DNA of 45,326 nt from a virus. Lineage: Duplodnaviria; Heunggongvirae; Uroviricota; Caudoviricetes. Within the stretch, counting starts at the first letter, position 1, and every line of letters starts with the position of its first letter. The stretch lies in IMG/VR virus record IMGVR_UViG_2778261532_000009, positions 1 through 45,326 of that record, one strand, 5' to 3'. Position numbers: made by a program. This document shows, piece after piece, positions 40,601 through 43,600 of the stretch.

Positions 40601-43600
40601 CACGTAAACGAATGGCATCAGCTTCGGCCTGGGCTTTTGTGCGAATAGCATCAGCCTGTCCGGCAGCTTCCGCGCGCAGCATGTTGGCCTCTGCTTCACG
40701 TTGTTTGACCTCTTGCTCGCGTTGCAGGGTTTTTTGGTTTGCCGTAACTTTGGCGTTAATACTGTCAATAACTGTTGGCGGATATTCTGGCTTACCTACA
40801 TAAGAGAGGCTCATCACCTGAATGCCGATTGGCGTCATTTCTTCCTGAATGTCTTTAAGGGCTGCATCAAGCAATTCAGATTTGCCACCGTCGATAAATT
40901 TGTCGGTGGTCATTTTGCTGGCTAACCGGTTCAGAGCATCTGCAACCTTCTGGCGTAGATCGGTATCAGTAATATCATCTACACCTTTGCGATAGGTCTG
41001 AAATACCGTTGTGACTTTTGCTGGATCAACCTTGTAGGCTACGCCGATGTGGTAACCAATGGTTGTTCCGTCGCTCATCTGGAAGCTGAACGGCTCATCG
41101 TATGTCTTCATTTGCTTAAAGGTCGGGAAGATATAAACTTCAGTATTCAAGCCTGTCCAGTAGCGACCAACACCAACTACTTCACCGATACCTTTATCAT
41201 CCCCCAGCTTATTTACTTTGATCCCTACGTTACCTGGCTCTACCCGATCGCATCCGGTCAGACATAAAGAACCCAAAATAATCGCTGCACTAATCAACGT
41301 TTTTTTCATTAATTAATTTCCTGGTTTTTTCACGAAAAAAGACTACTGCGAAAGCCGGGTAAATGAGCGCGAAAAGGACTCCCAACAATACAAGTATTGT
41401 GCTGTTAGATGAGATCATATTTGGCAAAAGCCAAACATACAGAACCAGTGACACAATCAAACAGAGGACGGCATAAATATATAACCGCACCCATAGCGTT
41501 CGACATTTGTTCGGATTGTTCTGCATCCTCTCACTCCATTATTTAACGAATAAAAAAGCTGCGGTGCCGGGTGCCTCCCGGTGTCCTTTGGCTGGTTATC
41601 CACCGTGGGCGGGGAAACAAGGAGAAATAATGGACAGATATAACCATTTCCCCGCGTGCGCTTAGCCGCATTCACCGCAACGGAAAGAGCATTCTTGGTG
41701 GACCTGTAGATTGGGATATGACCCCGTTACGCCAGTGTTCTCAACGTTGTAGTGCCGGTTACGGTTCCGGCCAGGCCTCTTCCTCAACGGGGGGTTCTCC
41801 ATACGGACTACCGTTTATTGGTCGTTCCTGCGGTTTATGTTGTGAAGCCAGATGCTTATCTTCTGGTTGCTTCTAAGAGCTGCACTTCATCACAACGGTA
41901 AGGGTACTTCGTAGGGATTCGAACCCTCTGCCAAGCACGGCGATCTCCGACGTCGCAAAATACCCTTACCTGTTGTGTTGGTGCCGGTTAACGGACTCGA
42001 ACCGCTGACATCCTGCTTACAAGGCAGGCGCTCTGCCAACTGAGCTAAACCGGCATTGGCGATGGTGGATGGATTTGAACCATCGACCTGTTGATTAACA
42101 GTCAACCGCTCTAACCGCTGAGCTACACCATCACTTGCCGGGTACGTCTCCGGCGAGGGCTTCCACCTCCGTATGCTTTTCGGCGCACCGCGCCCTGGCT
42201 GCAATTCGGTAACAGGGGATGCATAACCCTGGCTTCCAGCGTGATTAGCGCTTTCAGCATGACGGGATATACCCGTAAATTCGTGGAACTGTACCCAAAG
42301 TGCTGTTAAGCACCGCTGTTACGCTGAAAAGAAGACGCAACAGGAAAGGACGCTGACCAACAGATGGCCCCTTCTCGTTCATCTGGTTAATCACACCAGC
42401 GCCCTTACCTGTTGTGCCTCCCCGTTCCCTAATACACAGACGGGGACACTCTGCGGTCGATTTTTTGACGGGGGACGACTCATACCCCGTGGCGCCTGGC
42501 TTCTTAGGCCGCTACCATCATCAGATCATCGTTTGCATTTACTTTAATGGTCAGTTTCTAAACCGCCGCAAAGTCGCTAACCATGACGAAAACCCTGAAA
42601 AAAACGCCCACCCGAAGATGGGCAAACTGGAAGCTCGTAACGCACTTCGGTGTTGCCACTTAGGCGCATGGTCAACCTGGCAACTCGGCGTCATGAGGGG
42701 GAAGGAGTCACTACCCCGCCATACTTGCCGCCGCGCCTGTCGCGGTTAACAGCTAAATCGCTCTATAAATCACGATTCATTGAGGCGATATTACACTAAT
42801 AAATTTATTAGAGCAATATCGCCATAACGTCATGAGCAACACCACGAGTGTCTCCCTTACAAGACACAGAACGTCTGGCAAAGAGAGGTTCCACTCTGAA
42901 GCCACTGTCCTGATAAAGTTCTCTGATGTTTGGCGCGCCACTGTTTGTAATGAGAACTTTTGCACCTCGACGATGAGCATCCGTCAACAGAGACACCAGG
43001 CGTTTTTGCTCTTCAAACTTAAAGTCATGACCGGAATAGTTCGTGAATCCCTCTGTATTTGGAAGCGGTTCATACGGCGGATCGCAAAAGATGACATCTC
43101 CTTCTCCGGCAGCTTCAATCACCGCTGCAAAATCACCGCATACAAACTCAGACCGCCCTTCCGCACCGAGGAAGGCTTCCATCTCCTGTAATGGGAAATA
43201 CGGAGTTTTATACTTCCCATAACCGACATTGAACTCACCGGCCTGGTTGTAACGCGTCAATCCGTTAAAACAATGTCGGTTCAGGAACAAAAACGCCGCT
43301 GCGCGATGTAAATCATCATAGACTTGTTTGTTAAACGCATTCCGTACTGCCAGGTATCCTTCCTGTGTGTTGTAGTCCTGGAAAAAACGATGTGCCAGAG
43401 TGATAAGTGAATGCGCCTCGCGTTGCAGAGTCTTGTAAAAGTTAATCAGGTCAGCATTCACATCATTTAGCAGATTTTCCTGGTATCCGGCATTCATGAA
43501 GACAGCTCCGCCACCAACGAAAGGTTCAATCAGGCGCTTCCCTTCTGGCAAATAGCGAAAGATTTGTTCCAGAACACCAAATTTTCCACCAGCCCATTTG

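Follow-up and report, generated by a model that had tools for sequence, protein, structure and literature searches.

A non-decoding tRNA-like domain on a covarying stalk hairpin downstream of tRNA-Thr in a P1-like phage-plasmid, a probable member of a modular phage RNA family

Introduction

To our knowledge, non-decoding mimics of transfer RNA (tRNA) are rare in bacteria and phages, the known cases being transfer-messenger RNA (tmRNA), the Y RNAs and a few substrates of RNase P. The present work concerns such an element, termed M1, in a 45,326-nucleotide (nt) stretch of DNA from a tailed-phage-type virus of the Caudoviricetes (IMG/VR record IMGVR_UViG_2778261532_000009, positions 1 to 45,326; this whole stretch is called the window). 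M1 is 87 nt long, lies on the minus strand at 41977-41891 and begins one nucleotide past the CCA of a tRNA-Thr; it is a stalk hairpin with a stem of 21 base pairs (bp) and a tRNA-like cap that lacks an anticodon arm, as seen in its fold, in covariation and with a covariance model described below (R2). The window is a P1-like phage-plasmid, and M1 is a non-decoding tRNA mimic embedded in phage noncoding RNA. An earlier inspection of the DNA without database searches (the sequence-only reading) had picked out the segment 41890-41978 as a structured element immediately 3' of tRNA-Thr.

Stable or functional RNAs from the spacers or trailers of tRNA operons are known in E. coli, as with the rtT RNA and tyrT repeats, which contain pieces of a tRNA 3' end, and the leuZ 3' external transcribed spacer. 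The window offers a parallel to the tyrT repeats, in that a remnant of the tRNA-Thr 3' end (CCGUAACCGGCAC) precedes its second stalk hairpin; the rtT, tyrT and leuZ elements, however, are chromosomal, have no sequence relation to M1 and do not carry a tRNA-like elbow on a long stem. In P1 itself the C4 RNA is matured by RNase P. Signals of the mascRNA/MALAT1 type share with M1 a non-decoding tRNA-like fold inside a longer transcript, which in their case directs endonucleolytic maturation, whereas in M1 the acceptor-like helix is extended by 14 more pairs and there is no single-stranded 3' tail, an arrangement unfavourable for RNase P. The YrlA RNAs (RF02553) resemble M1 in combining a long bulged stem with a domain of tRNA-like T- and D-arms that is neither aminoacylated nor decoding; in YrlA, however, the long stem takes the place of the anticodon stem and the T-arm comes before the D-arm, whereas M1 has an extended acceptor stem and the order is D then T.

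Structured phage RNAs of other classes also lie beside tRNA genes. Theta ribozymes, which are minimal ribozymes of the hepatitis delta virus (HDV)-like type, occur immediately 3' of phage tRNAs and have been proposed to process tRNA trailers (PMC10879173). M1 is likewise a conserved structured RNA placed directly 3' of a phage tRNA; the family to which it belongs, in which a stalk hairpin is followed by a conserved core RNA (stalk + core), differs from theta ribozymes in having a closing helix that joins the 5' and 3' ends of the core, and no nested double pseudoknot, and no HDV-like fold was found for it. GOLLD and ROOL are phage RNAs often found beside tRNA islands, and GOLLD sometimes holds phage tRNAs in its variable linker (PMC12286853). 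Like them, stalk + core is phage-encoded, of unknown function and made of conserved and variable parts; unlike them, it is much smaller (about 200-350 nt with the stalk), occurs mainly in Proteobacteria and matches them neither in sequence nor in Rfam, and oligomers are not in evidence for stalk + core. Lastly, STnc100 and its relative PasD, known from Salmonella and pathogenic E. coli, have been described as prophage-encoded, Hfq-associated small RNAs (sRNAs) of unknown function or as Hfq-dependent base-pairing sRNAs (bioRxiv 10.64898/2026.05.13.724894). STnc100 shares with the core a closing helix (...GGUG/CACC...), an AAU, a 5' hairpin, a middle part that varies and a 3' hairpin set directly against the closing strand, and one profile (R1, below) finds both the STnc100-like copy of the window and the main core family; the STnc100 model differs from stalk + core in having neither a stalk hairpin nor a tRNA-like part, and STnc100 and PasD are treated in the literature as enterobacterial, whereas the core motif extends across phyla. 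No description of the stalk + core family was found in the literature, and full-text searches for its motif sequences returned nothing relevant; a large catalogue of predicted phage RNAs (PMC10690425) may contain pieces of it.

Results

Fold of M1

On the minus strand M1 reads CACAAC-A-GGUAAGGGUAUUUUG / CGACGUCGGAGAUCG / CCGUGCUUGG / CAGA / GGGUUCGAAUCCC / UA / CGAAGUACCCUUACC-GUUGUG. Its outer stem, CACAAC-A-GGUAAGGGUA...UACCCUUACC-GUUGUG, has 6 + 10 pairs and a bulged A at 41971, just as the sequence-only reading had drawn it (a 16-bp closing stem with one bulge), and the helix runs five pairs further inward (UUUUG/CGAAG, with two G-U pairs) for a total of 21 bp. The 5' strand (CACAAC, bulged A and GGUAAGGGUAUUUUG) occupies 41956-41977 and shows compensatory changes in Enterobacter phage BUCT554 and in contigs L049, L256 and L324; the 3' strand (CGAAGUACCCUUACC GUUGUG; 41891-41911) is its partner in the covariation alignment. 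The innermost 7 bp (UAUUUUG/CGAAGUA, the 5' half being the last 7 nt of GGUAAGGGUAUUUUG) lie directly 3' of the T-arm, in the position of an acceptor stem.

Enclosed by this helix is a D-like hairpin, CGA-CGUCGGAGA-UCG, with GG within its 9-nt loop (41941-41955), identical in BUCT554. It is followed by a stub of 2-3 bp, CCG UGCU UGG (41931-41940), which stands in the alignment at the place of the anticodon arm and is the sole variable part of the interior, and by a hairpin, GAGGG-UUCGAAU-CCCUA (41912-41928, T-loop 41923-41917), that can be read directly from the sequence as T-arm-like. The likeness to a T-arm claimed by the sequence-only reading holds for its inner part, AGGG-UUCGAAU-CCCU (41927-41913), which has a 4-bp stem, a canonical 7-nt loop and both the G53-C61 pair and the UUCRANY loop expected of a T-arm; the outermost pair is a G-A mismatch. 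M1 is thus a tRNA 'elbow' atop an extended acceptor helix, and since it has neither an anticodon nor a free CCA end it cannot decode.

The minimum free energy (MFE) of the minus strand is -41.7 kcal/mol (z = -5.35), a value equalled in 0 of 200 shuffles, so that the thermodynamic preference for the stem on which the sequence-only reading had made its proposal depend is present, in agreement with the covariation given below. The plus strand folds less well (-35.7 kcal/mol), and because both the G-U pairs and the better energy favour the minus strand, M1 is taken to be a minus-strand RNA rather than a plus-strand one.

Conservation and covariation

BLAST finds M1 in about 490 P1-like plasmids at 95-100% identity and in BUCT554, a Uetakevirus that has no tRNA close by; scanning viral contigs for the motif yielded 99 stretches and 35 distinct variants. 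When 11 distinct variants of the 21-bp stem are aligned, paired cells make up 93%, compared with no more than 52% once the partners are slid, and nine pairs have changed on both sides, a number reached by 0 of 500 shuffles. Comparison of the window with BUCT554 is free of motif bias, as BUCT554 was found by BLAST, and the differences between the two are unevenly spread: 9 of 43 positions in the stem and 4 of 13 in the linker have changed, against 0 of 32 in the D-like hairpin and T-arm (P about 5e-4). Three contigs (L256, L306 and L324) also carry the interior unchanged on largely different stems. Judged from these alignments, the tRNA-like tip is more constrained than the stalk, which argues against simple decay of M1. 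The domain is tRNA-derived.

Class membership

The view of the sequence-only reading that M1 is not a fourth tRNA was borne out. ARAGORN, run on the window, called no tRNA gene at M1, and the Rfam tRNA model (RF00005, threshold 29 bits) found nothing on 41890-41978 when a 501-nt search was run with a cut-off as loose as E<=10; in place of a 7-bp acceptor stem with free NCCA and an anticodon arm, M1 has seven pairs that continue as a 21-bp duplex, and the stub. The accompanying statement that no acceptor stem or anticodon arm can be drawn stands for the anticodon arm and falls for the acceptor stem, as a 7-bp acceptor-like helix, and a D-like arm as well, can be drawn. The best Rfam scores on M1 are at noise level (mascRNA 14.2 bits, E = 5.5; ALIL 10 bits). 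A mascRNA-type processing signal (RF01684) was accordingly rejected, the gathering score being 42.5, and so was a YrlA-type Y RNA, considered for its long bulged stem with a tRNA-like domain: its arm order is wrong and its model has no match on M1, giving weak matches (18-26 bits, gathering score 69) only on the neighbouring true tRNAs.

Instead, M1 belongs with the stalk hairpins, having the stem CACAAC-(A)-GGUAAGRGC.../...GYYCUUWCC-GUUGYG around an interchangeable interior. The covariance model of M1 built in this analysis, R2, scores 108 bits on M1 and finds related hairpins at 20-46 bits in the window (M0, below) and at 25 or more other loci.

Other known elements were considered and set aside. 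An intrinsic terminator at M1 was rejected since there is no U-run (the sequence after the stem is AUGAAGUGCAGC), the only sites within 41300-43000 lying at 42605-42627. HDV-like/theta and other ribozyme families gave no Rfam match at permissive thresholds in the region of M1 or at the loci examined, and GOLLD/ROOL (RF01998, RF03087) gave none in the window, P1, D6, Ro157, BUCT554 or eight further loci. A hammerhead, suggested by CUGAUG and GAAAC strings, was rejected because covariation puts CUGAUG within a simple hairpin. An integron attC site does not fit either, as the stem ends of M1 (ACACAAC / GTTGTGA) depart from the consensus RYYYAAC / GTTRRRY. The 3' strand of the enterobacterial stalk holds UGCUCUUU, equal to the first 8 nt of the rrn boxA, and upstream hairpins carry GAAAGA-type loops resembling boxB; this boxA-like string is base-paired in the stalk and absent from a second stalk subfamily (CAGUCCUCAGCCGUG), and a boxA/boxB assignment was dismissed as coincidence. 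A put-type antiterminator RNA as in HK022, considered for the internal terminators of the operons, found no support; the HK022 put RNA is built differently, as a V of two stems that spans some 70 nt (PMC9378689).

Stalk hairpins as a repeated module

There are three stalk hairpins in the window and three or four in P1 and RCS47; in P1 three related hairpins lie downstream of tRNA-Thr. Upstream of tRNA-Asn in the window is M0 (42416-42336, minus strand; stem CACAACAGGUAAGGGCGCUG...CAGCGUCCUUUCCUGUUGCG; R2 19.7 bits, E = 0.058), the third stalk hairpin, which has a related stem, an unrelated interior and no core after it. The second (41676-41752, minus strand) is identified by alignment with P1, SJ46, D6 and Ro157 and by the repeat families of P1 as a hybrid of P1 modules 2 and 3. 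About 280 bp of P1 sequence are missing from the window and from Salmonella phage SJ46 (window ~41700-41712 against P1 L001 1607-1910), lost by recombination between the GGGKUCAUAUCCCAAUCUAC repeats (GGGKTCATATCCCAATCTAC copies) of modules 2 and 3. This deletion takes out the full core RNA of P1 and fuses two stalk hairpins into the hybrid, whose arms pair poorly. RCS47 has one extra unit. Ro157c2YLVW has the M1 stalk at the corresponding site, altered by compensatory changes (GGGUA/UACCC to GAGCA/UGCUC), but the interior enclosed there is another one, shorter by 19 nt and devoid of a T-arm. A possible degenerate core remnant follows M1 in the window (41839-41896, minus strand; GUUGUGAUGAAG...CCAGA-AGAUAAGCA-UCUGG-CUUCACAAC), of which the 3' hairpin and closing strand alone look like the core; as a 'mini-core' it was rejected, since its R1 score of 9 bits is not significant.

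Among phages the stalk tip is interchangeable: in some it is of unrelated sequence, in others a reduced tRNA-like domain or a genuine tRNA, and in others again a tRNA whose D and T arms are canonical and whose anticodon loop is destroyed. Stalk hairpins are repeatedly preceded, at close range, by a small hairpin whose loop is GGAAAGAC / GAAGAGAC (for example L005 2985-3001, L099, L096 and L020).

Conserved core RNA

Directly after the stalk hairpin, BUCT554, RCS47 and many others have GGUGAAUGCGCAGGCUGAUGCGC, with GCCGGAGAUCAGCACCGGCCACC some 50-200 nt later. M1 itself is directly followed by a full core in 32 or more RCS47-type contigs, in BUCT554 and in L298, L327, L333 and L338. The core RNA is about 100-130 nt long and comprises a covarying closing helix that joins its 5' and 3' ends, a hairpin with a GGCUGA loop, a variable domain (often opened, after the first hairpin, by the string RAGAC) and a hairpin with a AGAUCAGCA loop. 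In an alignment of 46 non-redundant sequences 94.5% of cells are paired and 11 pairs have changed on both sides, which 0 of 500 shuffles reach; one pair of the closing helix is GC in 18, UA in 15, AU in 12 and CG in 1, and the two 5-bp hairpins covary. The hairpin loops GCUGA and UCAGC are complementary over 5 nt and both invariant, and it is proposed from this complementarity that they may form a loop-loop (kissing) contact.

The covariance model of the core built in this analysis, R1, scores the core beside M1 at 72 bits in RCS47-type contigs and 53 bits in BUCT554, against only 9 bits in the window. This core sequence on the 3' side of the stalk hairpin shows 90-100% identity among 162 records of widely differing phages, and the core motif is present in 1358 of 5426 complete E. 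coli genomes. A 21-nt core pattern matches at least 120 viral and at least 120 genomic stretches, the latter in Gamma-, Beta- and Alphaproteobacteria and in metagenome-assembled genomes labelled Geobacteraceae, Acidobacteriota, Phycisphaerales (Planctomycetota), Chitinophagales (Bacteroidota) and Coriobacteriia. At loci L011-L250 (GTGAATGCRYAGGCTGATRYG matches) the 21-nt stretch is unchanged across phyla in phage or prophage DNA and lies within base-paired regions. A gene-specific riboswitch or leader was rejected, as 98 downstream open reading frames (ORFs) fall into unrelated clusters, the largest of 9 members.

Rfam 15, searched with P1 relatives and further loci, holds no family for the core, and its STnc100 model does not detect the main GGUGAAUGCGCAGGCUGAUGCGC core type. 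In the window, an STnc100-type core RNA (41558-41681, minus strand) was identified by Rfam STnc100 (RF02076) and by R1: the Rfam match at 41560-41679, 210 nt downstream of M1, has 35 bits (E = 4e-6), short of the gathering score of 47, and the R1 score is 25.6 bits (E = 1e-4). This RNA adjoins tciA, a TerB-like gene, on its upstream side and ends in a U-run (GCAGCUUUUUU). R1 also matches the dicF-dicB spacer of E. coli K-12 (L251 1655-1782). Judged by these profile matches, the core RNA appears to be a relative of the prophage sRNAs STnc100 and PasD.

Association with tRNAs

The stalk + core family is physically coupled to tRNAs. A tRNA lies within 1 kb on the same strand at 38 of 251 cores, compared with 2 on the opposite strand. 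The stalk region contains 0.57 T-arm-like hairpins per kb, typically located immediately ahead of the 3' strand of the stalk, and control sequence further downstream 0.07 per kb; when stalks with a T-arm no more than 28 nt from the core were sought directly, 58 distinct ones emerged. Genuine tRNAs are fused before cores, namely tRNA-Gly (in a Massilia genome), tRNA-Leu and tRNA-Trp (both confirmed by Rfam) and tRNA-Met (ARAGORN only), the core starting 2-5 nt past their 3' ends. L350 and L383 have 'tRNAs' above the Rfam threshold in which an insertion of about 25 nt replaces the anticodon loop and the acceptor helix is extended. Stalk tips thus form a series that runs from genuine tRNAs through tRNAs with a destroyed anticodon loop to reduced forms such as M1. 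Conversely, stalk hairpins start 1-2 nt past the CCA of tRNA-Thr (P1 and L027 types) and of tRNA-Ser (D6). In phage D6 the island described below also contains an 87-nt tRNA with anticodon UGA (L003 1638-1724, minus strand), with a core RNA on one side and a stalk hairpin on the other; it is a tRNA-Ser according to ARAGORN, and in Rfam it scores best as tRNA-Sec (43 bits, below the gathering score of 47). Ro157c2YLVW has a tRNA-Tyr between Asn and Thr.

The noncoding RNA island

Over positions 41600-42200 the window shares 98% identity with phage P1 and relatives of P1. The corresponding part of the P1 reference record lies in the C1-controlled ban operon (Pban), which carries on one strand P1ban/P2ban with operator Op72, a 'dicF-like region', tRNA-Asn, tRNA-Thr, tciA-C, tRNA-Ile and ban. 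The tRNA-Asn of the window (GUU; 42132-42057, minus strand; ARAGORN; Rfam tRNA 76.8 bits) is 2 nt upstream of tRNA-Thr (UGU; 42054-41979, minus strand; ARAGORN; Rfam tRNA 72.4 bits). The 1.3 kb from Pban to tciA in the window is a noncoding RNA island that contains a DicF-like RNA with its terminator, M0, the two tRNAs, M1, the hybrid hairpin and the STnc100-like RNA with its U-run. The DicF-like region (42530-42700, minus strand; intrinsic terminator 42624-42605) lies between Pban and the tRNAs, and the conserved segment after it, GCGACUUUGCGG...AAAUGCAAACGAUGA, is also present in Klebsiella phage SCNJ1-C (L008) and in viral contigs L252, L256 and L306. The ban operon thus has at least two terminators inside it ahead of ban.

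Antisense to the island, the P1 record (L001 1619-2188) annotates hypothetical upl and plp ('putative lipoprotein'), whose counterpart in the window is 41600-42010 on the plus strand; plp overlaps tRNA-Thr by 30 bp and also overlaps M1 on the opposite strand. No ORF spans M1 in the window, where the plus-strand ORFs stop at 41876 and 41901, and indels among relatives of the M1 region are not multiples of three (for example the Ro157 interior, 19 nt shorter). For these two reasons upl and plp are unlikely to be genes, and they are probably mis-annotations of the noncoding RNA island; neither is conserved as an ORF in the window or in relatives with indels.

Elsewhere in the window, the Rfam scan recovered the C4 antisense RNA (75.9 bits) adjoining isrK (60.8 bits) at 15235-15426 on the minus strand, the immunity region expected of P1 (immI), and RNA-OUT, the antisense RNA of IS10/Tn10 (98.8 bits), at 5304-5373 on the plus strand, which indicates an IS10 insertion in the P1-like element.

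Discussion

It is highly likely that M1 is a conserved minus-strand RNA structure in which a tRNA-like, non-decoding domain is carried on a covarying stalk, and that it is a member of a modular family. As to why it is kept, the preferred explanation, with a rough probability of 0.45, is that M1 is a tRNA-derived structural module maintained for its elbow and serving as cis-acting punctuation of a tRNA/sRNA transcript. M1 would be co-transcribed with tRNA-Asn and tRNA-Thr and would mark a point in a long untranslated polycistronic transcript at which processing or stabilization occurs. Its long duplex could be a handle for RNase III, whose substrates have some 20 bp or more of near-continuous duplex, a length that the predicted 21 bp of M1 with one bulge would provide, and its elbow a handle for RNase P or other T-arm-binding enzymes. 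Cleavage at M1 would part tRNA-Thr from the downstream sRNA and mRNA and would also yield a compact, nuclease-resistant tRNA-like hairpin, so that selection would keep the elbow and not coding capacity. In these particulars the mechanism is tentative and on the doubtful side.

Several observations weigh against this explanation. The T-arm is outside the MFE structure of M1, the fold that contains it being 1.1 kcal/mol worse and its pair probability about 0.25, although such a result would be unremarkable for a tRNA-like domain that leans on tertiary contacts. Because the T-arm and D-like hairpin are invariant in all homologues, their pairing has no support from covariation, and most homologues of M1 are in near-identical P1-like plasmids that carry little information on selection. 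Action of RNase III or RNase P on M1 is purely inferred; established enzymology counts an acceptor-like helix that runs on as a duplex among the poor substrates of RNase P, and the helix of M1 is fully paired beyond position 1. The core partner beside M1 is lost or degenerate in P1 and in the window, and the module next to M1 is truncated by the deletion; for these reasons this copy of M1 may be a leftover. P1 transcriptome data covering the region were not found in the literature, and knock-down of trnT, plp, upl and tciA-C by CRISPR interference leaves P1 plaque formation unaffected (PMC10695390).

The three possibilities named by the sequence-only reading for M1, a degraded tRNA, a processing signal or a tRNA mimic, all remain in play, plain decay being disfavoured by a constraint on the tip that is stronger than that on the stem. 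That M1 is a relic, a decayed tRNA gene or a scar of recombination between stalk hairpins that has no function and owes its conservation to recent ancestry and horizontal exchange, would account for a locus in flux (the ~280-bp loss in the window and SJ46, the extra RCS47 unit, the other interior in Ro157), for the loss of the partner core, for the dispensability of the region for plaque formation (PMC10695390) and for the 95-100% identity of the 490 plasmid copies, and the true tRNAs found at the same position elsewhere make decay from a tRNA a natural origin. Functionless decay is, however, hard to square with the 0 of 32 changes in the D-like hairpin and T-arm between the P1 type and so different a phage as BUCT554, when stem and linker have 9 of 43 and 4 of 13, or with the same interior on almost completely different stems in L324 and L256; moreover at least 10 unrelated stalk interiors have a T-arm, and in every one the loop is canonical and the 5-bp stem intact. 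A relic is therefore unlikely. Even less room is left for the segment being no RNA at all, that is, part of the opposite-strand plp gene or a DNA inverted repeat such as a recombination site. The annotation of upl and plp across the region in the P1 reference and the superficially attC-like arrangement of an inverted repeat around a variable 'cassette' speak for it, but the 30-bp overlap of plp with tRNA-Thr, the lack of an ORF across M1 in the window, the indels of relatives that are not multiples of three and the misfit of the stem ends to the attC consensus all contradict it, and among the compensatory stem changes are G-U pairs, which the opposite strand would have as C-A mismatches. No integron integrase gene was noticed in the P1 records examined, in which no systematic search for one was made. 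Such a reading is very improbable.

The remaining alternatives accept M1 as a functional RNA and differ from punctuation in cis in what it would do. One is that the hairpin is released, as an RNA of about 55-90 nt, and targets a tRNA-binding factor in trans as the tRNA-like domains of bacterial Y RNAs do, whether as a decoy or inhibitor of a host enzyme or of an elbow-recognizing anti-phage nuclease, or as a recruiter. The confinement of invariance to the elbow-forming parts agrees with this, as does the absence of anticodon and CCA end, which excludes decoding as in YrlA-type mimics, and M1 lies in an accessory, non-essential region by tRNAs and DicF-like and STnc100-like sRNAs, a setting typical for host-interaction functions. 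No partner is known, however, the arm order and long-stem origin are unlike those of YrlA, whose Rfam model has no match on M1, and many stalk hairpins of the family lack a tRNA-like tip, so that the tip is optional for the family; a trans-acting role, in any of these forms, is distinctly unlikely. The other is that stalk and core are one functional RNA (a self-processing, elbow-binding or oligomerizing scaffold) to which the tRNA or tRNA-like tip is substrate, cargo or handle, M1 in the window being a leftover of such a unit. This would explain why a full core directly follows M1 in RCS47-type contigs, BUCT554, L298, L327, L333 and L338, why 21 nt of the core are unchanged across phyla and its two loops complementary over 5 nt, and why true tRNAs are fused 2-5 nt before cores; the unrelated downstream genes exclude a gene-specific leader, and GOLLD, with tRNAs in its linker (PMC12286853), and ROOL supply an analogy. 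Set against this are the invariance of the loops, by which their pairing has no covariation, the lack of an Rfam ribozyme match, a spacing between tRNA 3' end and core that is not fixed (2-5 nt), the presence of a tRNA near only ~15% of cores and of a T-arm in only ~8% of stalks, and the description of the relatives STnc100 and PasD as Hfq-dependent base-pairing sRNAs (bioRxiv 10.64898/2026.05.13.724894). It too is judged unlikely.

A broader proposal, fairly unlikely as it stands, is that stalk + core constitutes a class of phage RNA not yet described and spread over several phyla, in which the invariant core acts on, or together with, the tRNA or tRNA mimic joined to it on the 5' side. If so, the core class might be a trailer-processing ribozyme, a tRNA-elbow-docking RNA or a self-assembling scaffold with tRNA-like cargo; M1 would be a natural minimal, 'elbow-only' substrate or handle of the system, and STnc100, PasD and the dicF-dicB spacer of K-12 would be derived members.

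With punctuation in cis as the preferred account of M1 itself, the element is a minimal version of a tRNA mimic, an elbow on a long duplex, and a point of entry to a family of phage RNAs, large and modular, whose sole representative in Rfam is STnc100, a distant enterobacterial member of unknown function. The family joins phage tRNA islands, prophage sRNAs (DicF-like, STnc100, PasD) and structured RNAs of unknown function, and its series from true tRNA to elbow-only forms could reveal uses of the tRNA shape outside translation.

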